Shown: one piece after another, positions 9,970-42,640 of the stretch | How the letters are laid out: each line of letters begins with the position of its first letter | How positions within the stretch are numbered: the stretch's first letter is position 1 | NCBI GenBank assembly: GCA_020847415.1 | Contig: JADLBZ010000036.1 | Span: 1 to 44,383 of the forward strand | Source: Planctomycetota bacterium | Lineage (GTDB): Bacteria > Planctomycetota > UBA8742 > UBA2392 | Length of the DNA stretch: 44,383 bases | Direction: 5' to 3' | Translations under genes and position numbers: made by a program | The notes under the pieces: model-generated | Database searches by the model: none | Told to the model about the DNA's origin: nothing | What the model saw: only the letters and a program-made list of their open reading frames with translations

Positions 9970-10020
9970 GTATCCAAAGAGGCCAACGCCACCCCATCGG
10001 CTGGATGCCGCCGCCACAGG

Positions 10021-11235: not shown

Positions 11236-11271
11236 GGCATGCACCAGCAGGGGGAGGTCAGGGGTGCTGCA

Positions 11272-11317
11272 GGGGCGCGTGGGCGCCCCCGTGTGTCCGG
11301 CGCAGCGGTGTGCGCCG
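11272..11317 (-). other. Two GC-rich hairpins in the 95-bp gap between paralogues 2 and 1
   Basis: cggcgca-gcggtg-tgcgccg (11298-11317) and ggggcgc-gtgg-gcgcccc (11272-11289). The second has the same outer 7-bp arms as the REP palindrome at 38359-39348. No T tract follows. Confidence 0.35.
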
Positions 11318-11330
11318 CAAATCTTGCGCG

Positions 11331-12677: not shown

Positions 12678-12729
12678 GTCCATCCTCCTTGCGTCAGGCC
12701 CGTTGCAGGGTTCCTCTACCCGGCATCGG

Positions 12730-20011: not shown

Positions 20012-22738
20012 ATGATCGTTTCGCTGCGCGGCAAGCGCGTGGCCGTGTCCAGCCGCAGGCTGGCACTTGCGGCCGCCATGGTACTGATGGGACTTGGAGT
20101 TACGTTCGCGGCGCTCACCCACGAGGGCGGTCCCGCCGGGTTCTTTGACATGAAGCGCACGACGCACAAGCTGGCGGTTGCGGTGGGCCTGGAAAGCGAC
20201 ACCCCGGTGCTGCTGGCAGAGGCCGAGAAAGAAGGCCCCCGTCGCGCCCGCGGCCCTTTCCGCCAGGGTGACGACCCCGGCGAGAAGCACTGGCACGACG
20301 AGCTGAAGCGGACCACCGAGAACAAGGACGGCAAAGTTGTCGTCAGCAACGTGGAAGGCGCCGGCGCCTGGTCAAGCTGGTACTACTTTGCGCCCACCAT
20401 CCTGCTGGGCCTGATCGCCGCGGCGGCGGCGCTGGTTGTGGCCCTCAAGTTCTTCAAGGACGTCAAGGCCGCCGAGCCCGGCACGCCCAAAATGGTCGAG
20501 ATCATGGACGCCGTGGCCGAGGGCGCCATGGCCTACTTGAAGGCCCAGCGCAAGCGCGTGCTGCCGGTGCTGGGCGCCGCATCCGTGATCATCCTCGCCA
20601 TCAACCTGATCGGCATGCCCTGGTGGCTGGCCATCTTTGTGCCCCTCGGCCTGTTCACGGGCGGCTTCTCCAGCTTCATCACCGGCTGGTACGGCATGAA
20701 GACCGCCACCATGGCCAACGCCCGCACAGCCTACGCCTGCAAGCAGGGCGGCCTGAACGCCGGCCTGCAGGTGGCGTTCAAGGCGGGCTCGGTGATGGGC
20801 CTGTCGGTGGTGGGCATCGGCATCGGGTTCATCACGGTGTGGCTGCTCATCCTGGGCGGCATCTTGGACCCCATCGCGGGCAGCATCACCCTGAATGACA
20901 TCGCCAACGCCATGATCACCTTCGGCCTGGGCGCCTCGCTGGTGGCGCTGTTCGCCCGCGTGGGCGGCGGCATCTACACCAAGGCGGCTGACGTGGGCGC
21001 CGACCTGGTGGGCAAGGTGGAAGCCGGCATCCCGGAAGACGATCCCCGCAACCCGGCCACCATCGCCGACAACGTGGGCGACAACGTGGGCGACGTGGCG
21101 GGCATGGGTGCGGACCTGTACGAGTCGTACCTGGGCTCAGTGCTGGCCTGTATCGCCCTGGCGTGGTCGGCCAGTCAGGCGCTGGGCCACAACCCCTGGG
21201 GCTACGTGGCTGCCCCCATGTGGATTGCCGCGGGCGGCATCATCCTGTCCATCATCGGCACCAAGTTTGTGAAGACCAAGGAAGGCGCCAACCTGGGCGA
21301 GCTGCTGAAGGCCCTCAAGAAGGGCGTCAACGTGGCCTCCATCGCGGTGGTTCCGCTTTCGCTGGTGGTCTGCCTGCTGTGCTTTGGCGTGGCGATGGGC
21401 CTTACGATGTGGTTGGCCTGCTGCATTGGCCTGGCATCGGGCCTCGTCATCGCCTGGGGCTCCGAGAAGTACACCAGCTACGACGACAAGCCCACGCAGG
21501 ACGTGGCCAAGCAGGCCCTTACCGGCCCGGCAACCGTCATCATCGGCGGCCTGGCAGTGGGCATGATGAGCACCTGGATTCCGATCATCACCGTGGCGGT
21601 GGCCACGTTCCTGGCGTTTGGCCTGGGCGGCGGGTTCCTCGGCGGTGGGTTCTCTGCCGGTGTCTACGCCGTGTCGCTGGCGGCGGTCGGCATGCTCAGC
21701 ACCCTGGGCATTACCCTGGCCACAGACGCCTACGGTCCCATCGCGGACAACGCCGGCGGCAACGCTGAGATGGCGGGCCTGCCCCCCGAAGTGCGCGAGA
21801 AGACCGACGCCCTGGACAGCCTTGGCAACACCACGGCTGCCATCGGCAAGGGCTTTGCCATCGGCTCGGCGGCACTGACCGCCCTGGGCCTGATTGCAGC
21901 CTACAGCGATTCTCTGAGCAGCCTCGCCACTTACATGGATGTCAGCCCGCGCTTCAGCTTGGGCGTGATTACGCCCGAGGTCATCATCGGCCTGTTTGTC
22001 GGAGCGTTGCTGGTGTTTGTGTTCTGCGCCCTCACCATGAAGGCCGTGGGCGATGCCGCCAAGGAAATGGTGGAGGAAGTCCGGCGCCAGTTCCGCGAGA
22101 TTGTGGGCCTGCGCGAGGGCAAGGAAGGCGTGAAGCCCGAGCACGGCAAGTGCGTCGAGATCAGCACCCAGGCGGCCATCCGCCGCATGATGCTGCCCGC
22201 CATCATCGCGGTTGTGGGTCCCATTGCGACCGGCGTGTTCTTTGGCGCGGGCGCGGTGTTTGGCTTGCTGGCCGGCGGTTTGGCCACGGGTTTTGCCATG
22301 GCGGTGATGATGGCCAACACCGGCGGTAGCTGGGACAACGCCAAGAAGTTCATCGAGAAGGGCGGCCTGGCTGAGCTGATGATTGCCGACGGCAAGTACA
22401 AGCCCGAGGTTGAGGACCCGCAGCTTGAGGCCGCCAAGGCCACCCAGGGCGGTCCTGACGACGCCCCGGCTGCTGCTGCCCCTGCCCCTGCCGCCGAAGC
22501 ACCCAAGAAGAAGAAGTACGCCCGCTACATGAAGGGCAGCAACGAGCACAAGGCGGCCGTGGTGGGCGACACCGTGGGCGACCCCTTCAAGGACACCAGC
22601 GGCCCGTCGCTGAACATCCTGATCAAGCTGATGAGCATGGTGGCGGTGGCTACTGCTGCCCTGACCCTGCTTGTCAACGATGGCGGCGGCCTGCTCTCGC
22701 AGGCGTTCAGGTTCATCTTCACCACCACCGCTAAGTAA
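20012..22738 (+). CDS. hppA: Membrane-bound (H+ or Na+) translocating pyrophosphatase, K+-dependent-type signature
   Basis: 908 aa. Motifs [85 protein letters not shown] (Ala, not Lys, at the K+-dependence position), DNAKKFIE and [34 protein letters not shown] 7 nt upstream of the ATG. Confidence 0.95.
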
Positions 22739-22787: not shown

Positions 22788-24479
22788 GTGTGTGAGTTCA
22801 ACCGCAGGTATCTTGTTGCCCTGCGCACCGTGCTGCTGATGACGCTGCTGCTGCTTGCGCCGCTCGTCCGTGCCGGCGAAGACGCCAAGGCTGACTACGA
22901 CGCGGTGCTGGCCGCATTCAAGGCCAAAGACCACGCCCGCACGACCGAGCTTGCAGAAGCCTTCCTGGCTGCCCACAAGGACTACCAGCACGCCGGCGCC
23001 GCCGCCTGGATGGGCGGTAACAGCGCCTTTCGCGCGGGCCTGCACGCCCGCGCCGAGAAGCTCTACCGCACCCTGCTGGCGGACTACCCTCCCAGCCGCG
23101 ACATCGAGAAGGGCCGTGACGAGCTGGTCTCGCTGCTTTCCGAGATGCGCAAGCTGCCCGAATGCATTGCCCAGTGCGAAGAGAACCTCAAAGCCGCCCC
23201 GGAAAGCCCCGCCGCCGAGTGCTGGGTCCTCACCGTGGCGGAGTGCCGCTTTCGGCTGTGGGAGTTTGAGTCCGCCGAGAAGGCCCTGAAGGCCTTCATC
23301 GAGGCACATCCGGCCTCGCCCCTGCTGGCGCGGGCCAGGAGCCTGCTGGACGACATCAACCCGCCCCTGAAGGTGGGGGCTGACGGCGTGGTGGCGGGCT
23401 ACGACGGCAAGTACCGCGACGACCCGCGCCTGGCGGCTGCCCTGAAGGCCCTGCCGGGGGCGGTGAAAGCCGGCTGCGCCATGCTGGAGAAGATGCTGGG
23501 CGTGAAGGTGGCCGGCAAGGCCAGCGCGGTCTTTGAGTTCAAGGACAAGGCCGATTCGCGTATCACAGACCGCGCCACCACCCGCACCATCGCCATGAAG
23601 TACAAGCCCTTCACGCTGATGACCTTCTACACCGAGCACATCGTGGTCTCGCTGCCGGACTTTGAGAGCCGCGTGGCCCACGAGCTGAAGCACGCCGCCT
23701 TCCGCACCCTGATGGGCCAGGCCTACCTGAACCTCCCCGAATGGGTGCGCGAGGGCTTGGCCGTCTACGGCGCCGGCCAGCTTGAAGACCGTATCTGCCA
23801 TGTGGTGGGCAACCAGGTGTTCGGGGGGCAGCCGTCGCTGGCGGTGCTGGATGGACTGGAGGACGCCGACCACGACAGCACCGATTACATCGAAGACGCA
23901 CTGGCCTTTGCGTGGCTGGAGGGCCGCAAGGCGGGCGCCGTGAAGGAGTACTGCCGCCGCCTGCTGGCGGGCGAGGCCCACGACAAGCTTTTTGCTGCGC
24001 TTTCGGGCCTGGAGTATGCGGCAGCCGTGGAAGCGGCCGGCACCTTTGCCCGCGACGAAGTTACCCGTCGCCTGGGCAGCGCCGAGGCCGAGCTGATCTC
24101 GCTGCAGCAAGCTGAGGATGCCGCGGTCTCCAGCGGCAAGGCCGACCACTGGCGCAAGAACACCGGCCTGCGCGAGTATCGCGCCTGGCTGAAGGCCAAC
24201 CCGGCGCACCCCCTGGCCGCGAACTGCCGCTACCGCCTGGCCAAGGCAGTGGTGCTGACCGGCGACTACGAGCAGGGACGCGTGCTTATGGCCGAGGTTG
24301 AGGCCGACCAGCTTCGCACCAGCCTGTGCGACGATGCCGTGTACTGGCTGGCCCGCAGCCACGAGCTGGAGGGCAACGCCGAGGCGGCTGACAAAGAGTA
24401 CGACCGCCTGCTGCATGACTACTCGTGGTCCAGTGCAGCCCAGCGCCTGCGCGACGAGCGCGCCAGGAAGCCGGGGTAA
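22788..24479 (+). CDS. Secreted TPR-flanked putative gluzincin (MA-clan, DUF1570-like) metallopeptidase
   Basis: A GTG at 22788 gives an n-region plus [21 protein letters not shown] signal; an alternative ATG lies at 22839. TPR-like helices at both ends. The centre carries [10 protein letters not shown] (HExxH) followed about 20 aa later by [14 protein letters not shown], a candidate third ligand Glu. Confidence 0.65.
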
Positions 24480-24484
24480 CCGGC

Positions 24485-26410
24485 ATGGCGGAAACCTCCC
24501 TGTTGCAGCGCCAGATTGAGGCCGCCCCGGCTGCGCCCGGCTGCTACCTGTTCAAGGACGAGCGCGGCAAGGTGCTTTACGTGGGCAAGGCCGTGGATCT
24601 CTCCCGCCGCGTGCCCAGCTACTTGCGTCCAGGCGCTGACGGCCGCCCGCACATCCCCTTTCTCATGGAGAAGGCGGAGAGTGTCGAGTTCGTGGTGGTC
24701 AGCAACGAGAAGGAGGCGCTGGTCCTTGAGAACAACCTGATCAAGCGCCTGCGGCCCCGCTACAACATTGTGCTGGCGGGCGACGACAAGACGTTTGTCA
24801 GTGTGCGCGTGGACATGCGCCACGACTACCCTCGCGCCACCATCGTGCACAAGTACCGCCGCGACGGCGCTGTCTACCTGGGGCCCTTCTCCAGCGCGTC
24901 GGCCCTGTACAAGACGCTTGAGGTGCTGCGCACGCGGTTTCCACTGCGGCTGTGCAGCGACCACGTCATGGCCAACCGCTCGCGTCCCTGCATGTATCAC
25001 GAGCTGGGCGCCTGCGTGGCGCCCTGCATGAAGGGACAAGTGGACAAAGCAGCATACCGCGAGCTGCTGCAGGGCTTCATGCGGGTGTTGCAGGGCAAGG
25101 ACGATTCCGTGGCGCGCGACCTCGAGCAGCGCATGGAGCAGGCCGCGACGGCGCTTGAGTTTGAGAAGGCCGCCCAGTGGCGGGACCGCCTGCAGGCTGT
25201 GCGCGCTACTACCACCCGCCAGCGCGCGCAGATCGGCCATGGGCCCGTGAACAACCAGGACGTCATCGGCCTGCACCGCGAGGCCGACCGCGTTATGGTG
25301 GCCCTGCTGATGTACCGCGACGGCAAGCTGGAAGACACCGCCACACGCGAGCTGCAAAGCACCCTGCCCGACGACGAAGTGCTGGCCGGCTTCACCTCGG
25401 CCTGGTACAGCCGCGCTGCCTTTGTCCCCGAGGAAGTGGTGCTGGCCCTGCCCGTGGAAGCGCCTGAGGCCCTGGCCTCGTGGCTGACGGACCGGGCCGG
25501 GCATGCCGTGCGCGTGACCGTGCCCCAGCGCGGCGACAAGGCCAGGCTGGCCGAACTGGCGGCGGTTAACGCGCGCCACGCCTTGAAGGTGCGCAACGAA
25601 AGCGAGCACCGCGCGCGCGAGTTGCTGCGCAGCCTGCAGGAGGCTTTGGGCCTGGAGCGGCTGCCCCTGCGCATGGAATGCTACGACATCAGCCACGGCG
25701 GGCAGGGGCGCGAGACGGTGGGCTCGGGCGTGTGTTTTGTGGATGGCGAGCCCGCCAAGCAGCACTACCGCAAGTACCACGTGAAGAGCCACGACCGCAA
25801 CGACGACTTCGCCAGCCTGCATGAGGTGCTGACGCGCCGCCTGAAGCGCGGGCTGGAAGAGGGCAACCTGCCGGACCTGATCGTTATTGACGGCGGCCCC
25901 GCCCAGCTTGGGCGTGTGCAGGCGGTGTTTGACGAGCTGAATGTGGTGGGGATTGACCTGGTCTCGCTGGCCAAGTCCCGCGACAAATCCGCCCCGGCCT
26001 GGGAGACCAGCTACGGCGGCGAGGCCGCAAAGACACCCGAGCGCGTGTTTCTGCCGGGGCGCGAGGAGCCGCTGCTGCTGGACCAGCGTTCGCCGGCCCT
26101 GTTTCTGCTGATGCGAATCCGGGACGAAGCGCACCGGTTTGCGGTAACGTTTCATCGCAAGTTGAAGCGCAAGCAGGCGGTGCAGAGCAGCCTGGATTCC
26201 GTGCCGGGGCTCGGCCCGCGCCGCAAGAAGGCGCTGATCCAGCGCTTTGGCTCGCCGCGCGGGGTGAAGCTGGCCACGCTGGAAGAACTGCGCGCGATGC
26301 CGGGCATCCCGGAGAAGCTGGCCCAGGCGGTGTTTGAACGCTTTGCCGAAGAACGCGCGCGGCTGCAGGCCAAAGCCGCCCCGGCCCCCGGCCCGGAAAC
26401 CGCGCCCTGA
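24485..26410 (+). CDS. uvrC: Excinuclease ABC subunit C
   Basis: 641 aa from the ATG at 24485. GIY-YIG domain GCYLFKDERGKVLYVGKAVDLSRRVPSY...ENNLIKRLRPRYN, a UVR domain (LEFEKAAQWRDRLQAV), an endonuclease domain and a C-terminal HhH (LDSVPGLGPRRKKALIQRFGS). Confidence 0.95.
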   Translation: MAETSLLQRQIEAAPAAPGCYLFKDERGKVLYVGKAVDLSRRVPSYLRPGADGRPHIPFLMEKAESVEFVVVSNEKEALVLENNLIKRLRPRYNIVLAGDDKTFVSVRVDMRHDYPRATIVHKYRRDGAVYLGPFSSASALYKTLEVLRTRFPLRLCSDHVMANRSRPCMYHELGACVAPCMKGQVDKAAYRELLQGFMRVLQGKDDSVARDLEQRMEQAATALEFEKAAQWRDRLQAVRATTTRQRAQIGHGPVNNQDVIGLHREADRVMVALLMYRDGKLEDTATRELQSTLPDDEVLAGFTSAWYSRAAFVPEEVVLALPVEAPEALASWLTDRAGHAVRVTVPQRGDKARLAELAAVNARHALKVRNESEHRARELLRSLQEALGLERLPLRMECYDISHGGQGRETVGSGVCFVDGEPAKQHYRKYHVKSHDRNDDFASLHEVLTRRLKRGLEEGNLPDLIVIDGGPAQLGRVQAVFDELNVVGIDLVSLAKSRDKSAPAWETSYGGEAAKTPERVFLPGREEPLLLDQRSPALFLLMRIRDEAHRFAVTFHRKLKRKQAVQSSLDSVPGLGPRRKKALIQRFGSPRGVKLATLEELRAMPGIPEKLAQAVFERFAEERARLQAKAAPAPGPETAP

Positions 26411-27920: not shown

Positions 27921-28712
27921 CTACTCTTCCTCGACGGGCAGGCGCACCGGGGCAATGCCGCCTGAGGTGCCGTCCAGCCACAGGGTGCGCGCACCGAGCT
28001 CGCGGGGGTTCAGTCCTGCCGACTTGCCCAGCAGGGCCACGGGCTGGGGAAGAGCGGCGGACAGATGCCACTCGTTCACACGTCCGCCCGCTTCCTGCAC
28101 CGAAAGGGCCGCGGCGCTCCACCAGGGGGTGATGCGCGTGGCCAGGGGCTCCACGACCAGTGCCTGCCCGCCCGCGGCGGCGTGGTCCAGCATGCGTTGC
28201 AGCAGGCGGGCGCGCAGGGCAGGAGCAAGCTCGTTCAGGGCGAAGGCCGCGACGATGCGCCGGGGCGGCGGCGGCCAACGAAAGCGATCCAGGGTGCAGC
28301 GCAGGGCGCCGCCGCGCACGCCCAGCTCGCGCCAGCTCTGGCGGGCTTCCGCCAGCGCCCAGTCGGCGGTATCCACGCCCACCACAAGGCCCGGGTGCTC
28401 CAGTGCCCAGGCCGCCGAGGCCACGCCGGTGCCGCAACCCAGGTCCACGATCTCGGCCTTGCAGGGGCCGGGCTTGAGGGCGCGCAGCACCTCGCGCACC
28501 ATCACGAAGTGGCGGGGACCGTAATAGAGACAAAACGCCGCGCGCTTGCCGCGCCCCGCAAAGGCATCGCCCCGGATACGTCCGCGCCGCTGCACGTAGT
28601 CGCGGGTCAGGGCTTTCAGGGCGCGGGAAACCTCGGGGTGGGTCAGCTCGCGCAGGTGCCGCGCAAACAGGGCCTCCAGCCAGCCATCCACCGATGCAGG
28701 GCGGGGCTTCAA
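27921..28712 (-). CDS. Class I SAM-dependent methyltransferase
   Basis: Motif I EIVDLGCGTGVASAAWAL, preceded by FCLYYGPRHFVMVREVL (Rsm22-like flavour; inference). A TTG at 28712 overlaps the alr stop (TTGA); an alternative GTG lies at 28691. The rest of the ORF 27921-29150 overlaps alr and is discarded. Confidence 0.7.
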   Translation of the reverse strand: MKPRPASVDGWLEALFARHLRELTHPEVSRALKALTRDYVQRRGRIRGDAFAGRGKRAAFCLYYGPRHFVMVREVLRALKPGPCKAEIVDLGCGTGVASAAWALEHPGLVVGVDTADWALAEARQSWRELGVRGGALRCTLDRFRWPPPPRRIVAAFALNELAPALRARLLQRMLDHAAAGGQALVVEPLATRITPWWSAAALSVQEAGGRVNEWHLSAALPQPVALLGKSAGLNPRELGARTLWLDGTSGGIAPVRLPVEEE

Positions 28713-29827
28713 GCGTACACCCGCACCACGCGCCGTCCCAGGCCGCACAGGAACTCGTAGGGCACGCACTGGGCCCAGCCGGCCACTTCGTCCAGGGTAA
28801 TGGCGGCCTTGCCCTCGCCGCCCAGCAGGGTGACTTCGTCGCCCACCCGGGCGTCGGGCACCGGCCCCAGGTCCAGGGTGGTGTAGTCCATGCTGACGCG
28901 GCCCACCACGGGGCAACGCACGCCGCGCACCAGCATCTCGGCCTTGTTGCTGAGGGCGGTGCGGTAGCCGTCGTCGTAGCCGATGGGCAAGGTGGCAATG
29001 CGCGTGGGTGCCGGCGTGTAGTACGTGCGGTTGTAGCCGATCGGCGTGCCCTCGGGCACTTCCTTGATGAACAGGATGCGCGTCTTCAGGCTCAGGGCCG
29101 GCTTCAGGCGCGCCAGCCAGGGCGCGCCGCCGCCGGGCAGGTGGCCCCACAGGGCAATGCCCGTGCGCACCATGTTGAAGTAGGCGTCGCTGCGGCCGAA
29201 CAGCGCCAGGCTGCTGCTGGCGTGCAGGGTGAGGTCGCGATAGCCCAGGCGGCGGGCGACCTCGACAGCCAGGTTAAAGGTCTCAAGCTGGCGCGTGGTG
29301 AACGCCGGGTTGCGCTCGTTGGGATAGCTGAAGTGCGTGCACAGGCCCACCAGTTGCAGGTGCTTCAGGCGCCGCAGGTTGTGCAGGAAGGGCACGGCCT
29401 CAAAGGGCTGCATGCCCAGGCGGCCCATGCCGGTGTCCACCTTCAAGTGAACGCGCACGGTGCGGCCCTGCCGCTCGGCCTCGGCGTTCAGCTCCTCGGC
29501 CATGGGCACCGTGTGAAGGTTGACCTCAATGTCGGCGGCCACGACGCGAGGCATCTCGCCGGGGATGACGCCGCCCACAATCAGGATGGGGGCCGAGATG
29601 CCGGCCTCGCGCAGCTCCAGCGCTTCGCCCGAGTCGCCCACGCCCAGCGCGTGCACGCCCTGCTGCACCAGGAGCCGCGCCATGGGCACGGCTCCATGCC
29701 CGTAGGCGTTGGCCTTGAGTACTGCCATCAGGCGCGTGTCGCCCACGCGCCGGCGGATCACGTCCAAGTTGTGCCGGATCGCGCCGGTATCAACCGTGGC
29801 CCAGGCCCGGTAGGTTTGCGTGGACAT
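28709..29827 (-). CDS. alr: Alanine racemase
   Basis: 372 aa. PLP-lysine motif AVLKANAYGHGAV. C-terminal domain with the conserved RIATLPIGYDDGY and GRVSMD. Confidence 0.92.
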   Translation of the reverse strand: MSTQTYRAWATVDTGAIRHNLDVIRRRVGDTRLMAVLKANAYGHGAVPMARLLVQQGVHALGVGDSGEALELREAGISAPILIVGGVIPGEMPRVVAADIEVNLHTVPMAEELNAEAERQGRTVRVHLKVDTGMGRLGMQPFEAVPFLHNLRRLKHLQLVGLCTHFSYPNERNPAFTTRQLETFNLAVEVARRLGYRDLTLHASSSLALFGRSDAYFNMVRTGIALWGHLPGGGAPWLARLKPALSLKTRILFIKEVPEGTPIGYNRTYYTPAPTRIATLPIGYDDGYRTALSNKAEMLVRGVRCPVVGRVSMDYTTLDLGPVPDARVGDEVTLLGGEGKAAITLDEVAGWAQCVPYEFLCGLGRRVVRVYA

Positions 29828-30870: not shown

Positions 30871-33138
30871 CTACCACTGCAGCGGCTTGCCTGCCAGCCC
30901 GTCAATAGCCGCGATGCGCGTCTCGGCCCGGCCCACCGCCTTCATGTGCAGATTCCACACCGGCAGAAACAGGTTGGTCACCTTCTTGGGTGTGGCCTTG
31001 TAGCGCTGCGAGAAGGCCTGCTTCACCACTTCGTCGCTCTTGCGGTTCTGCAGGTCAACCAGGTTCAGGCGCAGGTTGCCGGGCAGGGCACGCTCCAGGG
31101 TGGTCACGTTGTCGAAGTCGCGCACGCGGCTGGCATAGTCGTCGGGGCGGTCTTCCAGGCGCACACCGCCCTCCGGCGTGTAGACGGCGATCTTCAGGTT
31201 CACGGGGTGCAGGTAGACATGGCCCTGCAGGTGATCTGCGGCGCGGAAGTCAAACTGGAACACCCGCTGCATCAGCGTGCGGGTCACGCTTTCCCGGAAC
31301 TCCAGCTGCAGCACCAGGCGGTACTCCATCTCGACGTGGTCCAGCTCTTCATCGTCGCCAAAGATGCCCAACGTGGCCTTGCCCCGCAGGTCGCGCCCCA
31401 AGCGCTCGGCATCGTGGCTGGTCAGGCGGGCTGACAACACCTGCACGGGCTCAGTCAGCCCCAGGTCGGGCCGCAGGCCGGCGGCGCGGCTGAAGTAGCG
31501 CTGCACGCGGCCCTCCTTGAACTGCGCCGCCAGCCCGGCAGCGGCCAGCTTGCGCAGGGTGCTGCGGGCGGCACCCTCGCCCACGTCGGCATAGGCCGCG
31601 TACTCGGCGGCGGTCATGCTGGGCTTGCGGGCCAGCTTGCTGTCGGCCTCTTTCAGGGCTTCGGCTGCGGACGTATCGGGCGCCGCCGGCTCTTCCTCTT
31701 CTTCGTCCTCATCTTCCTCTGCCAGGGGCGCCGCCTTGGCGGTGCGGCCCGCTTTTGCGGGCGCGGGCTCTTCCGCCTCGTCGGCAGGAAGCTCCTCGTC
31801 CTCGGGCTTCTGGGCCTCCAGATGCTCCTCCAGTTCGTTGAAGCGCTCGCGTACCGGGCCGTCCACCTGTTGCTCGATGGCGTCCTCGTTCAGCGTCTCG
31901 TGGCGGGTGTACAGCCAGCGGCTCTGCAGGCGCACCGTGTTGCTGAAGTTGTCGGGCGAGATCAGGATGAACTGGCCGGGCTTGAGCGCCGGCAACTCTT
32001 CCATGATCTGGTCCACGTGCACCGGGTCCAGGGCCTTCACGGTGGGCTGCACCTTGGCCATGTCCTGGCGGGTGGTCAGGCGGCCGATGGCCCAGGTGCC
32101 GAACTGCGCCATGGCCTTGTAGTCCACGTCGGCGGGGTTCTGCGTCGCCATCAGGCAGCAAATGCCGTACTTGCGGGCCTGCTTGAACAGCAGGCTGAGG
32201 CCGGGCTTGCTGGCCGGCTTGCGCACCGGCGGGATAAACGGGGCAACTTCGTCAATGTAGAACAGGGCCTGGGGGGCATCGCTGGGGTTCTCCAGCATCC
32301 AGGCATAAAGCCGCTCCACCAGCGCCGCGACAAAGAACTCCTTGTCTTCCTGGGCGTTCAGGGTGTTCAGGTAAACGACGCTGAGCCGCGCCTTGCCCGG
32401 CACCGCGGCGGAGTTCTCGCCCCGGCCCAGCAGCAGGTCAATGTCCAGGGCCAGCCCCTCGTGAAACAGCAGCCGCCGGGCGCCCACGTCCAAGCGCGCC
32501 AGCTTCTGGCAGGCATGCTCGATCTTCTTGACGTCCAGATAGCGCCCGTACTCCTCCTTGGTGGCGCCATCCAGCTTCAGCAGCCAGTCCGTGAACTGCC
32601 GCAGGTTGCGCGGCATGCGCCCGTTCTTCAGCAGGCCGGCCAGGGCCTTGTCAAAGACCGCCACCAGGCCGGCGCCGTCATCGCTTTCGAGGTCATAGCC
32701 CAGCAACGAGGCCAGCATGCTTGCCATGCCGCTGATGGCCACCACGCGCTCGCGGGCGGGCAGGGCGCTGACATCCATGCTCATGGGGTCCGCCGAGAGC
32801 GCCACGCCCTTGCGCGAGGCCGGCGAGAACAAGACCACGTCGGCCTTCTCGGCAAAGGCCGCCGCCGTGGCGGGGTCAATGCCCTTCTGCTTCAAGTACT
32901 CGGGGTCCTTGGCGTGCAGGGCCAGGCTGCACAGGTCGCCCTGGGGATCAATGCAGATGGCGGGCAGGCCGCTGCGAACAAACTCCTCCACCACTGCCTT
33001 GCAGATAACGGTCTTGCCCGAGCCCGAGCTGCCCAATGCCATCATGTGCCGCAGCAGCGATTTGGGGGCCAGGGACACCGGCGCGGGTGGCTGTGCCAGG
33101 CGGTCGGTGCCCAGTTGGAAGCTTTCGGTCTGCGGCAT
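30871..33138 (-). CDS. HerA/YjgR-like (DUF87/DUF853-type) P-loop NTPase fused to an acidic linker, a wHTH-like segment and an unassigned C-terminal domain
   Basis: 755 aa from the ATG at 33138 (GGGAGA upstream). Walker A MALGSSGSGKTVICKAVVEEF...ICIDPQGDL, Walker B ALFYIDEVAPFIP, and CLMATQNPADVDYKAMAQFGTWAIGRL. Then EDEELPADEAEE...EEDEDEEEEEP, then MTAAEYAAYADVGEGAARSTLRKLAAAGL, then about 220 aa with no motif I recognise. Confidence 0.75.
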   Translation of the reverse strand: MPQTESFQLGTDRLAQPPAPVSLAPKSLLRHMMALGSSGSGKTVICKAVVEEFVRSGLPAICIDPQGDLCSLALHAKDPEYLKQKGIDPATAAAFAEKADVVLFSPASRKGVALSADPMSMDVSALPARERVVAISGMASMLASLLGYDLESDDGAGLVAVFDKALAGLLKNGRMPRNLRQFTDWLLKLDGATKEEYGRYLDVKKIEHACQKLARLDVGARRLLFHEGLALDIDLLLGRGENSAAVPGKARLSVVYLNTLNAQEDKEFFVAALVERLYAWMLENPSDAPQALFYIDEVAPFIPPVRKPASKPGLSLLFKQARKYGICCLMATQNPADVDYKAMAQFGTWAIGRLTTRQDMAKVQPTVKALDPVHVDQIMEELPALKPGQFILISPDNFSNTVRLQSRWLYTRHETLNEDAIEQQVDGPVRERFNELEEHLEAQKPEDEELPADEAEEPAPAKAGRTAKAAPLAEEDEDEEEEEPAAPDTSAAEALKEADSKLARKPSMTAAEYAAYADVGEGAARSTLRKLAAAGLAAQFKEGRVQRYFSRAAGLRPDLGLTEPVQVLSARLTSHDAERLGRDLRGKATLGIFGDDEELDHVEMEYRLVLQLEFRESVTRTLMQRVFQFDFRAADHLQGHVYLHPVNLKIAVYTPEGGVRLEDRPDDYASRVRDFDNVTTLERALPGNLRLNLVDLQNRKSDEVVKQAFSQRYKATPKKVTNLFLPVWNLHMKAVGRAETRIAAIDGLAGKPLQW

Positions 33139-33252
33139 GAAGTCTCCCTGCACCTGAACTGAGGCCAGAAAGCTGGCAATGGAAGCGCGCCCGCGCAATG
33201 GCCGAGTTTGCCGGGGCGATTCCGGCGGATCCATCTTTCACCACGGCGCGGC

Positions 33253-33281: not shown

Positions 33282-33316
33282 CCGTGGCCCGGCTGGACCA
33301 ACGCCTGCGAGCCCCC

Positions 33317-35266
33317 ATGCAGAAGTGTCCTTCGTGCAAGACCGAAAACCCCGACAACGCGCGATTCTGCATTGATTGCGGCGTTGCGCTTGGCGCCGAG
33401 CGACCCTCGGGCGCGCCCGAGAAGCCCGACGAAATCGGCCGCGTGCGCGGCGAAGCCGACCTGGTGTTTGAGGCCGGCAACGTCTCCTACGATCCCGGCA
33501 CCCTGGTGGCGGACCGCTACCAGGTCGAGAAGGAGCTGGGCCGGGGCGGCATGGGCACGGTGCTGCTGTGCCGCGACAAGTTCCAGGACGACGAATTCTG
33601 CTGCCTGAAGGTCATCAACCCGCAGTTGATTGACAACGAGGAACTGGTCGAGCGCTTCAAGAGCGAAGGCCGCATCGCCCGCAAGATCCGCCACCCGGCC
33701 ATCATTGCCACCCACGACATCTTTGAGTGGAAGGGCCGCTGGCACATCAGCATGGAGTTCTTCCCGGGCATCGTGCTGCGCAAGATCATCAACGAGGCCG
33801 ACACCGCGGGCCAGACGCTGCCCCTGAACGACGCCGTGGCGGTCGTCGAGAAGCTGCTGGACGGCCTGAAGGCCGCCCACGAAGTGACCGTGCACCGCGA
33901 CCTGAAGCCCGAGAACGTGATGATCAAGGGCAAGCCCGGCTCGCCGGACTTTCACCTCAAGATCCTCGACTTCGGCATCGCCAAGAACTTCGAGGTCAGC
34001 AACGCCACGATGGCCGAGGTCGCCATGGGCACCACCGGCTACATGGCGCCCGAGCAGGCCCGTGACGCGGCCAATGTGGACCGCCGGGCTGACTTGTACG
34101 CCACCGCCGTGATCTTCTACGAGTTGATGACCGGCCTGCTGCCCGTGGGCAACTACGAGCCGCCCACGGCCCTGCGGCCCGACCTGCCCGGCTGGGTGGA
34201 TGCCTTCGTGGACAAGGGCCTGCGCGCCCGGCCCGACGCGCGCTATGCCGACGCCATCGAGATGAAGCGTGCCCTGCTGACCGGCGGCGGCACCACGGAC
34301 AAGCAGGGCGCCAACCGCGCCACCCAGGTCTTCACCAGCCCGCTGGCCGAGGCCCGCAAAGAGAAAGACCCCGTGCGCGACGGGCGCTGGCTGCGCGTCA
34401 AGTTGATGGACAGCCGCCAGGGCCTGCTGCACGCCGTGGCCTATTCGCCCGACGGCCAGTGCTTCGCCACGGCCGGCGAGGACGGGAACATCAAGGTGTG
34501 GGATGCCCGCCGCCTGAAGCCCGTGGCCGAGCTCAAGGGCCACTCGGCCTGGGTCAAGGCCCTGCACTTCAGCCCCGACGGGCGCGTGCTGGCCAGCGGC
34601 AGCGGCGACAAGAGCGTGCGCGTGTGGGACACCCGCACCTGGCGCGAGGCAGCCGTGATCAATGGCCACGAGACGCCGGTCATTGCCGTGCGTTTCAGCC
34701 CGGACGGGCACTTCCTGGCCAGCTCGGGTGCCGACCAGACGGCAGTCCTGTGGGACACGACGAACTTTGAGCCGGTCAGCGAGGTGCACGGCGGCGGCAT
34801 TGCGGCCCTGAGCTTCAGCCCGGACGGCCTGCTGCTGGCCTCGGGTACCCTGAACCAGAGCGTGGTGGTGTGGGACATGATGACCGGCGAGGTGCTGGTG
34901 GAGCTGAAGGGCCACCGCGGCACGATTACCAGCCTGTCCTTCAGCCCCGATGGTCGCTATCTGCTCTCGGGCTCGGACGACTCGACCATCCGCGTCTATG
35001 AGGTGCCGGGCTTCCAGCGCACCCTGAAGGTGCGTGACCATTCGTCGCTGGTCTGGTCCATCAACTTCTCCAGTGACGGGCGCGTCATGGCCAGCGCCGG
35101 CGAGGACCGCATGCTGGTGCTGCGCCGCCTGCCTGAATGGGACGAGATGGCCAGCTTCCTGGATCACCCCAAGGGGGTATCGGGCGTGTCGTTCTCGCCC
35201 GACGGCCGCAACATGGTCTCCTGCGGGCGCAGCGGCAGCGTGGCGGTTTACTCGCTGCAGGTCTGA
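33317..35266 (+). CDS. Ser/Thr protein kinase with an N-terminal zinc ribbon and C-terminal WD40 beta-propeller
   Basis: MQKCPSCKTENPDNARFCIDCG. Kinase motifs LGRGGMGTV, HRDLKPENVM, DFGIAK and GTTGYMAPEQ. About seven WD repeats from ~34400 (GH...VWD / VWD / LWD / VWD...). Confidence 0.9.
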   Translation: MQKCPSCKTENPDNARFCIDCGVALGAERPSGAPEKPDEIGRVRGEADLVFEAGNVSYDPGTLVADRYQVEKELGRGGMGTVLLCRDKFQDDEFCCLKVINPQLIDNEELVERFKSEGRIARKIRHPAIIATHDIFEWKGRWHISMEFFPGIVLRKIINEADTAGQTLPLNDAVAVVEKLLDGLKAAHEVTVHRDLKPENVMIKGKPGSPDFHLKILDFGIAKNFEVSNATMAEVAMGTTGYMAPEQARDAANVDRRADLYATAVIFYELMTGLLPVGNYEPPTALRPDLPGWVDAFVDKGLRARPDARYADAIEMKRALLTGGGTTDKQGANRATQVFTSPLAEARKEKDPVRDGRWLRVKLMDSRQGLLHAVAYSPDGQCFATAGEDGNIKVWDARRLKPVAELKGHSAWVKALHFSPDGRVLASGSGDKSVRVWDTRTWREAAVINGHETPVIAVRFSPDGHFLASSGADQTAVLWDTTNFEPVSEVHGGGIAALSFSPDGLLLASGTLNQSVVVWDMMTGEVLVELKGHRGTITSLSFSPDGRYLLSGSDDSTIRVYEVPGFQRTLKVRDHSSLVWSINFSSDGRVMASAGEDRMLVLRRLPEWDEMASFLDHPKGVSGVSFSPDGRNMVSCGRSGSVAVYSLQV

Positions 35267-35441
35267 ACGTCGGCGCCGGCAGGCGCCCGCGAACAGGCGT
35301 CCGGACCGGCCCTGAAGAGGCTGCAGAGGCTACAAAACAGCGGTCGGATTGGAGTCGGCGCGCCGGGCGGGCCTTGGTACCTTTCCCCTAGCCGCAAAGG
35401 AGCACGCGGCAGGCCCCGCAGGGGGCCGGGAGGCAGAAGCC

Positions 35442-36011
35442 ATGGAACACGTACTTTACTGGATTGCAGGAATCGCCACCGCGCTGTTCGCCGTCCGCCT
35501 GGTGCTGATGCTGATCGGCTTTGACCATGACGCGGGCGACGCAGCCGACGCGCTGCACGGCGTGGGCGCCATGGACACCCTGGACGCCGCCCATGCAGCC
35601 GCTGATGTCGCGGACTTCAAGATCTTCACGTTGATGACCCTGCTGGTCACCGGCATGGTGGGCTCGTGGTCCTCCATCCTGGGCCTGGAGCTGGGCTTCC
35701 CTTCCTGGGCGTCCGTGGCCGGCGGCTATGCCGTGGGCTTCGTGGCAGCCCTGGGTGTGGCTTGGGCCATGTACGGCATGAAGAAGCTGGAGTCGGACGG
35801 CACGGTGCGCACCAGCGACGCCGAGGGGCTCAAGGGCACCTGCTATGTGGCCATCCCCGAGGGCGGCAAGGGCCAGGTGCAGGTGGTGGTGAAGGGCCGG
35901 CTGCGCACCTTTGACGCAGTCAGCGACGGGCCGGCGATTGCCAGCTTCAAGCAGATCGTGGTGATGACGCACGTGGATGACCGTACCGTGCGTGTGTGTG
36001 CAACCGAGTAG
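35442..36011 (+). CDS. NfeD/YqiJ-like membrane protein (DUF1449-like N-terminus, OB-fold C-terminus)
   Basis: 189 aa from the ATG at 35442 (GGGAGG upstream). TM helices, an acidic His/Asp loop (FDHDAGDAADALHG), and a C-terminal beta-rich GTCYVAIPEGGKGQVQVVVKGRLRTFDAV. It immediately precedes a flotillin gene, the classical pairing. Confidence 0.7.
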   Translation: MEHVLYWIAGIATALFAVRLVLMLIGFDHDAGDAADALHGVGAMDTLDAAHAAADVADFKIFTLMTLLVTGMVGSWSSILGLELGFPSWASVAGGYAVGFVAALGVAWAMYGMKKLESDGTVRTSDAEGLKGTCYVAIPEGGKGQVQVVVKGRLRTFDAVSDGPAIASFKQIVVMTHVDDRTVRVCATE

Positions 36012-36085: not shown

Positions 36086-37660
36086 ATGTTCATGGCAGAA
36101 GCAGATTCCACGGTGCTGATCCTGGCGACCATCTTCGTGGGCTTGGTGTTGTTCCTCATCATCTTCTTTGCCCAGCGCTACAAGCGCTGCCCCAGCAACA
36201 AGGTGCTGGTGGTGTTCGGCAAGGGCGTGGGCGGCGGCGCGGCGCGCACCATCCACGGCGGCGGCGCGCTGATCCTGCCCCTGATCCAGGACTATGCGTA
36301 CCTCACGCTGGAACCCATCACGGTCGAGATTGACCTGCGCGGGGCGCTCAGCAAGAAGAACATCCGCGTCAACGTGCCCGCCAGCTTCACGGTGGGTATC
36401 GGCACCAGCCCGCAAATGATGGGCTGCGCCGCCGAGCGCTTGCTGGGCCTGGACGAAGGCAGCATCCGCAAGCAGGCCGAGGACATCATCCTGGGCCAGC
36501 TGCGCCTGGTCATTGCCACCCTGGCCATCGAGGAAATCAACCAGGACCGCGAGAAGTTCCTGAACCTGATCAACGAGAACGTCGCAAGCGAGCTGAACAA
36601 GATCGGCCTCGAAGTGATCAACGTGAACATCCGCGACATCACCGATGAAAGCGGCTACATCGAGGCCATCGGCAAGCGCGCCGCGGCGGAAGCCATCAAC
36701 GCCGCCAAGGTGGAAGTGGCCCAGGAAGACAAGAAGGGTGCCGCCGGTGAAGCCCGCGAGGTCCGCGAGCGCGTGATTGCAGTGTCCGTGGAACAGGCCG
36801 CCGCCGCCGAGGGTAAGAAGAAGGCCGAGCGCGACCAGCGTATCGCGCTGGCACGCCTCGAAGCGGAAGGTGTGGCTGCCGAAGCCGCCGCCTCTCGCCA
36901 GCAGGAAGTCGCGGTCTCGCGCGAACGCGCCGAGGCAGAGAAGGGCAAGAAGGAAGCCCAGGCCGCGCAGCGTGTGGCCCTGGCCGGCCTGGAAGCCCAG
37001 GCGGTGGAAGGCGAAAACACCAGCAAGGCTGACATTGCCGCGCGCAACGCGGTGCTGGCTGAGGCCGAGGCTGAAGCCACCCGCCGCAGCCTGGTGGCCC
37101 GCGCCGACGCCCAGCGCCAGGTCTTTGAGAAGGAACGCCAGCTCGAATCCGCGCGCCTGGAGAAGGAAATCATCGTCAAGGAAGAGATCGCCAAGAGGCG
37201 CATGGAGATTGAGGCCGACGCTCACGCCGAGCAGCAGCGCCGCCACGCCAAGGGCGAAGCCGACGCCATCATGATGAAGTACGAGGCAGAGGCCGAGGGT
37301 ATCCGCAAGGTGCTGCAGGCCAAGGCGGACGGCTATAACAAGCTGGTGATGGCCTGCGCCGAGCGCCCGGACATCGCGCCGACCCTGCTGCTGATCGAGA
37401 AGATGCCGGAACTGGTGGCTGAACAGGTCAAGGCTGTCCAGAACCTGAAGATCGACAAGATCACCGTGTGGGACGGCGGCAACGGTGGAGCCGGCAACGG
37501 CAAGGGCGGGGCCGCGGGCTTTCTCTCCAGCCTGATTGGCGCACTGCCCCCGGTGCACGAGCTGGCCCAGCAGGCCGGTGTGGAGCTGCCGGGATTCCTT
37601 GGTCGCCTCAGCCCGACCGAGAAGCAGGGGCTGGGCGACGCCCCCAAGGGCAAAGCCTGA
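36086..37660 (+). CDS. Flotillin-like SPFH/band-7 protein (YqiK-like)
   Basis: 524 aa. N-terminal TM LILATIFVGLVLFLIIFFA, an SPFH domain, a long Ala/Glu/Arg/Lys coiled-coil (flotillin region), and a C-terminal EKMPELVAEQVKAVQNLKIDKITVWDGG. Confidence 0.9.
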   Translation: MFMAEADSTVLILATIFVGLVLFLIIFFAQRYKRCPSNKVLVVFGKGVGGGAARTIHGGGALILPLIQDYAYLTLEPITVEIDLRGALSKKNIRVNVPASFTVGIGTSPQMMGCAAERLLGLDEGSIRKQAEDIILGQLRLVIATLAIEEINQDREKFLNLINENVASELNKIGLEVINVNIRDITDESGYIEAIGKRAAAEAINAAKVEVAQEDKKGAAGEAREVRERVIAVSVEQAAAAEGKKKAERDQRIALARLEAEGVAAEAAASRQQEVAVSRERAEAEKGKKEAQAAQRVALAGLEAQAVEGENTSKADIAARNAVLAEAEAEATRRSLVARADAQRQVFEKERQLESARLEKEIIVKEEIAKRRMEIEADAHAEQQRRHAKGEADAIMMKYEAEAEGIRKVLQAKADGYNKLVMACAERPDIAPTLLLIEKMPELVAEQVKAVQNLKIDKITVWDGGNGGAGNGKGGAAGFLSSLIGALPPVHELAQQAGVELPGFLGRLSPTEKQGLGDAPKGKA

Positions 37661-39156: not shown

Positions 39157-39348
39157 AAGGGCGCAGCATGCTGCGCCCCGGCATGAACATGAACGGGCAA
39201 GGGCGCAGCAGTGCCCCCGCGTGAGCATGAACGGGTAAGGGCGCAGCACACTGCGCCCCGGCGTGAGCATGAACGGGCAAGGGCGCAGCAGTGCCGCGCC
39301 CCGGCGTGAGCATGAACGGGCAAGGGCGCAGCAGTGCTGCGCCCCTAC
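39157..39348. repeat. REP array B (5 units, 38-42 bp period)
   Basis: Units start at 39159, 39201, 39239, 39281 and 39323. The consensus is GGGCGCAGCA-NN-TGCTGCGCCCC, with palindromic arms varying in completeness, plus the conserved spacer ggcRtgaRcatgaacgggYaa. The array ends ...CTGCGCCCCTAC at 39348. Confidence 0.9.
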
Positions 39349-39371
39349 GTCCCTACATGACTGTGACTTGC

Positions 39372-41225
<1,854 letters not shown>

Positions 41226-41302
41226 GGCCAACCTTTCTCGCGTCGCTAGCCGGGCTCTGCCCGGATCCTGCCCCGTAATGCCCCGTAATGCCCCGTCTGC
41301 GT

Positions 41303-42613
41303 TTACTGTTTAGGTATGACGGCAATGCCGTTGATGCCGATGGAGCCGGGCCCGATGGTCAGGCTCAGGTCTTCGTTCCCGCGTCGCACCAACACCTGCA
41401 CGGATTGTCCTTCCGCCACGCCGCCCTTGGCGGCGTTCACGTCCTGCAGGTTCTTCACGGCCACGCCGTTGTAGCGGGTCATGATGTCGCCCACCTGGAT
41501 GCCGGCCAGCGCACCCTGCCCGTCCTGGGCCACAAAGGTGATCATCACCCCTTCCACCGTGGCGTTGCGCGCGGCCATCTGCTGGCCGGCGGCCTTGCGC
41601 ACCTCGGGGTCGGGGTCATTGGCGGCGGCATGCTCAATGGCGGCCCAGGCCTCCGGCGTGTCCTTGCCGGCCAGGGACGTGACCGCCTGCTTGCGGGCAC
41701 CCGCGTTGTCGGTGTTCGTGCTCAGGTAGTCGGTGAGGTAGCGCACCGAGGCCGGGTCCGGGATGTCGTTCAGGGCCGTGATCGCCACCGTGGATTCGTA
41801 GCCCTTGGAGGCCAGCAGGATGTCGCCGGCCAGCCGCGCCCGGTCTGCCGCGGGCTCACTGGTCCACCAGGCAAGGCCGTACAGCGACGAGATGCGGAAG
41901 CCCTGGTCTACGTTGGGGTCGGTCAGGCCCTTGTGCACCAGGCCATAGGTGGTGATCAGCGACGTGTATTCCTGGAAGTTCAGGCCCAGGGTGTTGGGCC
42001 CCTGCCCGAAGGGGTTCAGGCCGAAGTCCGCGGCCACCTGCTTCCACATGGCAATGGCGTCGTCATAGGCGGCGGGTCCCAGCTTCTGAAGGTCCCAAAG
42101 CGCTGCGATGGCGGCCTTCTTGTCCTTGGTGGCAAAGGCGCGCTCGAACTCGGCCTTGCCGCTCTCGATGCGCCGGGCGATTTCCTCAGGCGAGAAGTGC
42201 GAGAGGATGCCGTTGTCCTCGAGCAGCTTCTCGAGTTGCTCGACCCTGGCATTCTTCTGGCGCAGGGCTTCGTCGCTGCCGGCCTTGAGCGTGTCGTACT
42301 TGTCCTTGTACTCGCGGGCCTTGGCCTGCAACTCGGCCTTGTCGTCTGCCACGCGGCCCAGTTCGGCGGCCATGTCGCCGCCGGCATTCAGCGTGCGCTC
42401 GCGTTCCTTGCGGGCGTCCTCGGCTTCGCGGGCGGCTTTCTCGCGGCCCAGCCGCGCTTCATCCAGCTCGGCCTGCAAAGCGCCCACTCGGCGCTCGGCG
42501 GCAGCCAGGTCGCCTTGCGCGTCGCGGTTGGGCCCGAACAGGTACATGCCGCCCACACCGGCCGCCAGGCCCAGCAGGGTGCAGAAGACCGCGGTTGTCG
42601 TACCCTTTTCCAT
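41303..42613 (-). CDS. Membrane-anchored coiled-coil / HEAT-like repeat / C-terminal PDZ protein
   Basis: 436 aa from the ATG at 42613 (AAGGAAG 5 nt upstream). TM TAVFCTLLGLAAGVGGMYLF, then about 130 aa of charged coiled-coil, then HEAT-like repeats (...NDPDPEVRKAAGQQMA). C-terminal PDZ-like VAQDGQGALAGIQVGDIMTRYNGVAVKNLQDVNAA...VQVLVRRGNEDLSLTI. Confidence 0.7.
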   Translation of the reverse strand: MEKGTTTAVFCTLLGLAAGVGGMYLFGPNRDAQGDLAAAERRVGALQAELDEARLGREKAAREAEDARKERERTLNAGGDMAAELGRVADDKAELQAKAREYKDKYDTLKAGSDEALRQKNARVEQLEKLLEDNGILSHFSPEEIARRIESGKAEFERAFATKDKKAAIAALWDLQKLGPAAYDDAIAMWKQVAADFGLNPFGQGPNTLGLNFQEYTSLITTYGLVHKGLTDPNVDQGFRISSLYGLAWWTSEPAADRARLAGDILLASKGYESTVAITALNDIPDPASVRYLTDYLSTNTDNAGARKQAVTSLAGKDTPEAWAAIEHAAANDPDPEVRKAAGQQMAARNATVEGVMITFVAQDGQGALAGIQVGDIMTRYNGVAVKNLQDVNAAKGGVAEGQSVQVLVRRGNEDLSLTIGPGSIGINGIAVIPKQ

Positions 42614-42640
42614 GCGCACTTCCTTGGCTTGGTGCCGCAG

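Follow-up and report, generated by a model that had tools for sequence, protein, structure and literature searches.

The gene at positions 30871 to 33138 on the minus strand of contig JADLBZ010000036.1 (assembly GCA_020847415.1, from a Planctomycetota bacterium), which was analyzed over its full 44,383 nucleotides and is called the window below, raises the question of what a HerA/YjgR-like P-loop ATPase does with a linker, a winged helix-turn-helix (wHTH) and a C-terminal domain (CTD) of no recognized family on the same chain. Ring ATPases of the HerA/FtsK type power the segregation of chromosomes, the resection of DNA ends, conjugation and the packaging of viruses, and they are also the motors of several anti-phage complexes whose structures were solved recently. 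To our knowledge, nearly all such motors that have been studied owe their specificity to a separate partner subunit or to a membrane anchor. The four-part gene is intact in the window, and its product is tentatively read here, at a likelihood somewhat short of even, as a solitary ATP-driven nucleic-acid motor of the HerA/FtsK type that carries its own wHTH-CTD targeting or regulatory head and serves in chromosome maintenance or remodeling. The features of the gene are the following.

30871-33138, minus strand: complete gene, 755 codons plus stop, encoding the four-part ATPase-linker-wHTH-CTD protein (open reading frame list, homolog consensus start, GGAG)
31804-33138, minus strand: HerA/YjgR-like P-loop ATPase domain, residues 1-445, without a HAS-barrel (Pfam, Foldseek, motif translation)
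33010-33033, minus strand: Walker A motif GSSGSGKT, residues 36-43 (translation)
32248-32265, minus strand: Walker B motif LFYIDE (translation)
32164-32178, minus strand: ARKYG motif (translation)
32134-32148, minus strand: ATQNP motif (translation)
31675-31803, minus strand: acidic linker, predicted to be intrinsically disordered, residues 446-488, net charge -16 (model confidence, translation)
31486-31674, minus strand: predicted wHTH, residues 489-551, with helices H1 and H2, recognition helix H3 and a two-strand wing (AlphaFold2, Pfam, profile)
30874-31485, minus strand: predicted α+β CTD, residues 552-755, 204 residues (AlphaFold2, conservation)

A single uninterrupted open reading frame (ORF) of 787 residues spans positions 30871 to 33234 of the minus strand. 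The consensus of the homologs starts at Met33 of this long frame, that is at nucleotide 33138, and a Shine-Dalgarno-like GGAG lies 7 nucleotides upstream of that ATG; the 755-residue gene at 30871-33138 is therefore the best gene model, in agreement with the coordinates given in an earlier note made from the sequence alone. The same 755-residue form is the database representative (P0001), and the 32-codon extension up to the ATG at 33234 is open but without conservation. The full-length AlphaFold2 model, computed with 83 aligned homologs as input, has a mean predicted local distance difference test score (pLDDT) of 91.7. Homologs were sought in a collection of 5.8 billion proteins and the best 120 matches were compared: all of them, at 30-68% identity, keep the four-part architecture in a single chain, with the CTD at the C-terminus, downstream of the ATPase. 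Among the best 80 genomic loci related to the window gene, ATPase and CTD occur together in 73 and share a frame in 69; six of the remaining seven end at a contig edge, and one, from Woesearchaeota, shows no CTD. In four loci of Myxococcota or proteobacterial origin (L052, L055, L062 and L067) the CTD is encoded in another frame than the ATPase, and the low-complexity linker must therefore contain a frameshift, either real or a sequencing error. Breaks in the linker thus do occur, as would be expected if a frameshift from sequencing or assembly had merged two or three genes, an outcome that the earlier note had kept in view. For the window gene such an origin is scarcely credible: the ORF is continuous, the 120 single-chain homologs come from independent assemblies and several phyla, and most loci share the architecture, so the fusion is not an artefact. 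The intact four-part gene is confirmed, and the alignments indicate that its whole architecture is conserved beyond chance.

The ATPase is the most conserved part of the protein, with about 80 invariant positions in the homolog alignment, and the 83 homologs all have the same residues in Walker A, Walker B, ARKYG and TQNP. The earlier note had recognized the Walker A/B and ATQNP motifs as those of a HerA/FtsK-like ATPase, and translation, Pfam and Foldseek all agree with it. Pfam HerA_C (PF05872) was matched with 34.8 bits against a cut-off of 22, covering only positions 11-107 of the 502 in the profile (positions 255-375 are matched by other family members), and DUF87 scored 28.5 bits, above its cut-off; both matches are confined to the P-loop region. 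When the full model was compared with the PDB using Foldseek, only HerA-type rings were returned (E 3e-17 to 5e-11), comprising HerA-NurA (9x1m, E 3e-17), Sulfolobus HerA (4d2i, 8e-17), SIR2-HerA, DUF4297-HerA, TdpA, DndH-C, Deinococcus HerA and VirB4. Each of these structural neighbors, among them TdpA with DNA, is a hexameric translocase or helicase acting on DNA. The family profile matched the PDB sequences of HerA (8xau, E 3e-8) and YjgR (11kk, E 1e-5), and its alignment pairs the RKYG...TQ(N/R)P block with that of 8xau. Only 35 residues lie upstream of Walker A, modeled as a single β-hairpin (strands 7-12 and 19-23); since nothing but this hairpin precedes the motif, the protein has no HAS-barrel, as had been noticed before. 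The scores against the NCBIfam HerA models were 40.4 bits for NF042943 (cut-off 800), 30.7 for NF042944 (850), 10.7 for NF040819 (970) and 10 for NF040937 (800), and the PADLOC HerA and mad8 models give weak matches (E 1e-14 to 1e-8) that cover only the generic core of the ATPase. Pfam TrwB_AAD_bind reached 22.2 bits over no more than 51 residues, the NCBIfam TraD and VirB4 models 10-20 bits against cut-offs of 325-650, and weak CedB and CedD matches were also obtained. No match to Pfam FtsK_SpoIIIE or FtsK_gamma appeared at E ≤ 1, and a PHROG FtsK/SpoIIIE-like family was matched at E 0.063. Within the HerA clade the ATPase forms a divergent branch that resembles YjgR and lacks the HAS-barrel, and the model shows a predicted HerA-like motor fold in which the catalytic motifs are intact.

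The ATPase is followed by a linker (EDEELPADEAEE...EEDEDEEEEEP, nucleotides 31675-31803) in which residues 451-487 have pLDDT values below 50 in the full-length model and are therefore taken to be disordered. Homolog linkers measure 14-195 residues and are of low complexity, rich in P/A/S/G/T and not conserved in sequence, with a median net charge of -7. The extreme acidity described in the earlier note accordingly stands for the window protein, of which it is a trait, and not for the family, whose linkers are only moderately acidic. The next segment is modeled as helices 489-502, 510-517 and 521-533 followed by strands 537-542 and 545-550. The corresponding segments of homologs match the Pfam families MarR, MarR_2, HTH_24, HTH_IclR and TrmB, and the family profile finds the winged-helix ribosomal protein eS25 (E 1.3e-4) and the MarR-family repressor AdcR (2.8e-3) among PDB sequences. 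The net charge of this segment is positive (family median +4), and conserved basic residues are found in H3 and in the wing (R525, K541 and G543-R544). On its modeled topology, residues 489-551 form a genuine, canonical wHTH, as the segment had been described from sequence.

Modeled alone, the CTD gives a pLDDT of 92.8 and a predicted template modeling score of 0.87, with the same secondary structure as in the full-length model. Its elements run in the order short strand, helix, 22-residue strand, helix, four shorter strands, two helices, 20-residue strand and final strand; the earlier description of a β-rich domain hence gives way to an α+β one with four helices and two strands of about 20 residues, and its description as a domain of no recognized family holds. 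An invariant RPDLGL motif opens the domain, and R5, P6, E46, F63, E65, P94, D123, D125, P175, R190, D195 and G199 (CTD numbering) are invariant in the close family. Pfam gave no match for the window CTD, and scanning 39 members individually yielded noise in single members only; NCBIfam and PADLOC gave no match over the region at E ≤ 1, PHROGs gave none, and the best hit of the CTD profile to PDB sequences had E of about 1. With Foldseek nothing was found at E ≤ 0.001 in either the PDB (best E 0.37, template modeling (TM) score ≤ 0.18) or BFVD (best E 8e-3). The BFVD matches at that value, to giant-virus 'DnaJ-like' proteins (TM 0.30, root-mean-square deviation 17 Å), were set aside as too weak; a triphosphate-tunnel (CYTH/TTM) or TBP-like fold appeared only among the Foldseek noise (TM 0.12-0.18), and an internal duplication was rejected after hhalign comparison of the thirds of the domain (probabilities below 3%). 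The searches that the earlier note had called for on the regions after the ATPase thus recognize the wHTH by profile and leave the CTD without a match in PDB or BFVD, and the domain may represent a new fold. A profile of the CTD alone, run against 1.84 billion representative proteins, gave 180 matches at E ≤ 0.001, in which the domain is nearly always joined to a HerA-like ATPase that precedes it in complete proteins. In P0248, a protein of 1,512 residues, the profile matches 11 short stretches, best at profile positions 62-102 (E 5e-7); this protein is probably made of repeats, and its similarity to the CTD is likely to be spurious or very distant.

The family was surveyed in one genome per GTDB species using the full-length alignment, and relatives were found in 426 species-level genomes, including members of Planctomycetota, Myxococcota, Bradymonadia, Verrucomicrobiales, some Gammaproteobacteria, Bathyarchaeia and Woesearchaeota, with cultured carriers in the Myxococcota such as Plesiocystis pacifica SIR-1, Enhygromyxa salina and Nannocystaceae bacterium ST9. 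The architecture tolerates additions. Two proteins of about 1,300 residues (P0175 and P0207; locus L005 1385-5293) carry an N-terminal Peptidase_S8 subtilase before the ATPase-wHTH-CTD arrangement, and one variant (L006 401-3197) has a protease domain of the Lon type (S16) inserted after the ATPase and ahead of the wHTH-CTD, in which the serine motif is DGPSAG and the lysine motif GGIEQK; the gene call for this variant is split before the wHTH-CTD by a scaffold gap only. LAGLIDADG inteins interrupt the ATPase in some distant members, such as P0215 and P0255. A distant branch of proteins of about 1,000 residues (the five proteins P0235, P0237, P0242, P0247 and P0258, with loci L089 7001-10033 and L090 2870-6040) has a TrmB-like wHTH not before the CTD but inside it, between profile positions ~70 and ~145, where it replaces the middle third of the domain (Y91, P94, D123 and D125) and leaves the flanking helix-long-strand units in place. 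In this branch E65 is not always present and D195 can be E. Because the acidic residues that are invariant in bacteria are thus not all kept, the CTD is more plausibly a binding or structural domain than an enzyme, as far as sequence conservation argues. The distant-branch proteins also have an extra N-terminal extension of about 230 residues without an assigned family.

The wHTH and CTD appear to travel together: they are joined in each of the 120 best homologs, both are present in the distant branch, and both occur in an apparently free-standing protein, and for these reasons they are regarded as one evolutionary unit. This last protein (P0190, L087 1025-2131) consists of 368 residues, in which a lysine-rich N-terminal part and then an acidic stretch come before the wHTH and the CTD; its gene has its own upstream boundary next to an unrelated secreted-protein gene, on a 2.7-kb contig without an ATPase, and it may be a true stand-alone module. 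Other candidates for split, two-gene versions were discarded, the short 'wHTH-CTD only' entries being mostly contig-end fragments or one gene broken by a scaffold gap. The same fusion, which the earlier note had proposed to look for in other genomes along with split forms, is therefore widespread among relatives, with a single plausible stand-alone wHTH-CTD.

The surroundings of the gene are those of an ordinary chromosome, with genes for alanine racemase, UvrC, a H+-pyrophosphatase and a flotillin. Downstream of the ATPase gene lie a lipoprotein-like ORF and the alanine racemase gene; upstream and divergent are a Ser/Thr kinase-WD40 gene and then the flotillin gene, and the UvrC and H+-pyrophosphatase genes are less than 10 kb away. 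Neighbor conservation was assessed by all-versus-all BLAST and clustering of the ORFs from the 80 loci, in which no widely conserved neighbor, partner or effector gene was found, nor any in the archaeal loci. The recurrent neighbors were only antisense shadow ORFs of the gene itself, Ser/Thr kinases and genes in clade-level Planctomycetota synteny, and the neighborhoods in other lineages are unrelated among themselves. The synteny involves about 15 Planctomycetota loci (L007-L021, L024, L029 and L033) in which the homolog lies 13-100 nucleotides downstream of a COX1/2/3/4 cytochrome c oxidase operon on the same strand, with a kinase-TPR-PDZ gene of about 1560 residues abutting it tail-to-tail in most loci, usually 1-7 nucleotides apart; co-transcription with the oxidase genes is possible in this clade. 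The arrangement is also listed for L001 (3953-14879), and the window does not have it. Searches with tblastn returned no phage record and five plasmid records, all weak and limited to the ATPase region. Neither the window neighbors examined nor three related loci with Pfam-annotated genes contain type IV or other secretion-system genes. The gene is solitary and chromosomal, and its setting bears no signature of a defense island.

Compared with described systems, the protein resembles a HerA/FtsK ring motor yet falls outside HerA proper, FtsK, the coupling proteins and MADS, and its tie to YjgR/DUF853 is a distant one. YjgR/DUF853 is the nearest sequence family, by a partial match: it too is a HerA/FtsK-superfamily P-loop ATPase with Walker A near the start and no HAS-barrel. 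YjgR is, however, an ATPase-only protein of about 500 residues. The chain in the PDB entry 'HerA like helicase YjgR' (11kk) has 503 residues, against 755 in the window protein, whose C-terminal 310 residues (linker, wHTH and CTD) have no counterpart there; the CTD is accordingly not a routine part of YjgR/DUF853 proteins, and the family would be a distant branch within DUF853 at best. No established function for YjgR was found in the literature searched. With HerA the protein shares the RecA-like core, the RK(Y)G...TQ(R/N)P block and the overall fold, whereas HerA proper has an N-terminal HAS-barrel and the window protein scores far below the cut-offs of the HerA equivalogs (10-40 against 800-970 bits). 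HerA uses a partner subunit (NurA, SIR2, DUF4297 or TdpB), and no such gene adjoins the window ATPase or is conserved in the 80 loci; the window protein carries its own wHTH-CTD. FtsK and SpoIIIE belong to the same ring-ATPase superfamily and likewise have a winged helix tethered on the C-terminal side of the motor; in FtsK it is the γ domain that reads DNA (KOPS). Yet they have an N-terminal membrane domain, for which the 35 residues before Walker A leave no equivalent anchor, and the linker stands before the motor in FtsK and between motor and wHTH here; the window protein also has an extra domain of 200 residues after the wHTH and no FtsK motor or γ signature, and its wHTH matches MarR/TrmB/IclR-type models. 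Against the coupling proteins TrwB, TraD and VirD4 and against VirB4 it is sub-threshold, without a membrane anchor and without type IV secretion neighbors. The best PADLOC match is MADS Mad8 (PDLC04140), between residues 62-425 and positions 28-287 of the 314-position profile (E 1.5e-14), which spans most of the ATPase and leaves the wHTH-CTD unmatched. MADS is an eight-gene operon, mad1-mad8 (bioRxiv 10.1101/2023.03.30.534895). A MADS-like system was considered for the window and rejected: the mad8, mad6 and mad2 matches are generic and domain-level, spread over 7 kb among alanine racemase and lipoprotein genes in mixed orientation, and form no operon.

On these grounds we infer a hexamer, a DNA substrate, a targeting role of the wHTH-CTD and autoinhibition by the linker, the hexamer and the DNA binding being taken from the relatives. 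The N-terminal 445 residues would assemble as a hexameric ring, as in every solved relative, and by analogy this ring would translocate along double-stranded DNA or pump it through a central channel. A flexible tether, usually acidic, would bear the basic wHTH and the family-specific CTD, and this head would bind a DNA sequence or structure, or a partner, and in this way control how the motor is loaded, oriented or gated; the best working parallel for the head is the γ winged helix that FtsK carries. In addition, the acidic tether may serve as an autoinhibitory DNA mimic. The protein would act alone, with no dedicated partner gene and outside any mobile defense island. Several points weigh against such a motor. 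Some ATPases of the FtsK/HerA superfamily move proteins (EssC/EccC, VirB4/VirD4), and wHTH domains also mediate protein-protein contacts. The family variants fused to subtilase or Lon-type protease domains could point to a protein substrate, the acidic cluster E46, E65, D123, D125 and D195 could be the metal site of an enzyme, and the literature searched offers no experiment or paper on any family member. A bolder and rather doubtful extension is that the wHTH-CTD constitutes a head of a new fold, not described before, for the recognition of DNA or a ligand. Together with the HAS-less ring it would then establish a new class of chromosomal DNA motors that are solitary and target themselves, common to Planctomycetota, Myxococcota and Bathyarchaeia, analogous to the FtsK motor with its γ domain and evolutionarily separate from it. 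Literature searches on YjgR, DUF853 and HerA-like proteins with a winged helix or subtilase returned nothing on the ATPase-linker-wHTH-CTD architecture. The family is of moderate interest as a clean, conserved and uncharacterized one with a confidently modeled orphan domain: its characterization would bring a new domain or fold into the catalogs and give a role to proteins now labeled only 'DUF853' or 'HerA-like' (several homologs are named 'DUF853 family protein' by NCBI), and it could reveal how a motor of the HerA type finds its target when no partner is present.

The chromosomal motor has to be weighed against three other readings. The earlier note had hinted at phage defense, and a single-gene anti-phage or conflict system, in which the ATPase would sense or thread invading DNA and the CTD (with the protease domains in variants) would be the effector or sensor, could account for the PADLOC HerA and mad8 matches, for the SIR2-HerA, DUF4297-HerA and TdpAB complexes among the best structural neighbors, for the variants with an N-terminal Peptidase_S8 or inserted Lon-type domain, for the patchy distribution across phyla and for a neighboring kinase and methyltransferase that match the PD-T4-6/mad6 and mad2 models. 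We nevertheless regard it as unlikely. The PADLOC and NCBIfam matches concern generic ATPase motifs and, for the anti-phage HerA families, stop at 30-40 bits where 800-850 are called for; no effector or partner gene is conserved in the 80 loci; the stable oxidase-operon synteny in about 15 Planctomycetota fits vertical descent; phage matches are absent, and those to plasmids lack the CTD; the kinase and methyltransferase matches are domain-level, and the two genes are separated by the alanine racemase and lipoprotein genes in mixed orientation; and no catalytic motif of the CTD is conserved family-wide. The proposed link with phage defense consequently found no support in the loci, in the ordinary chromosomal setting or in the sub-threshold HerA and mad8 scores.

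A wHTH followed by a C-terminal effector or oligomerization domain is also the standard layout of MarR/TrmB/IclR-type regulators, and the matches of homolog wHTHs to these Pfam families, the apparent stand-alone wHTH-CTD protein and the solitary chromosomal gene would suit an ATP-dependent transcription factor or nucleoid-associated protein, whose wHTH-CTD would be the regulator, with the CTD oligomerizing or sensing a ligand and the ATPase acting as switch or remodeler. This is improbable to a similar degree as defense, given that the ATPase retains every ring-translocase motif and is the most conserved part of the protein with its roughly 80 invariant positions, and that we know of no wHTH regulator with a HerA-type motor. 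The ring might otherwise thread polypeptides, as a coupling protein- or unfoldase-like translocase of proteins or nucleoproteins whose wHTH-CTD would bind the substrate or an adaptor. The weak TrwB_AAD_bind and TraD/VirB4/CedB/CedD matches, the presence of VirB4 among the Foldseek neighbors and the subtilase and Lon-protease fusions, with the DGPSAG and GGIEQK motifs kept in the Lon-like segment, speak for this reading; yet the matches of the TrwB/TraD/VirB4 type are limited to the P-loop region, the ~35 residues before Walker A provide no membrane anchor, secretion-system genes are absent nearby (window neighbors examined and three related loci), and rings of Lon-like domains without proteolytic activity are also found on RadA/Sms and BrxL, which are DNA motors, so that we hold a protein translocase to be very unlikely.

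Among the genes around the ATPase, the Ser/Thr kinase (33284-35266, plus strand) is fused to a seven-blade WD40 propeller and begins 146 nucleotides from the ATPase start codon; it strongly matches the PADLOC PD-T4-6 (E 1e-62) and mad6 (2e-48) kinase models. The kinase was rejected as a functional partner, the similarity between loci being limited to the catalytic domain at 25-35% identity, and outside the Planctomycetota clade a kinase is adjacent in about 5 of 59 loci, a frequency that does not clearly exceed what genomes so rich in kinases would be expected to show. On the other side, a methyltransferase-like ORF (27921-29150, minus strand; Methyltransf_25, with a weak PADLOC mad2 match) shares ~440 nucleotides, as listed, with the 3′ region of the gene for alanine racemase (28709-29827, minus strand), and the true start of this ORF is probably further downstream. 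Long ORFs without any Pfam match are found at 3184-5376, 10005-12791, 39291-41249 and 41288-43669. Elsewhere the window encodes a 1,141-residue protein of repeated CarboxypepD_reg domains (15236-18661, plus strand), the membrane H+-pyrophosphatase (20012-22738, plus strand) and UvrC (24425-26410, plus strand). Beyond the kinase, a 220-residue ORF without a Pfam match (35349-36011, plus strand) precedes the 524-residue SPFH/Band-7 flotillin gene (36086-37660, plus strand), a layout that looks like an NfeD-like/flotillin pair.

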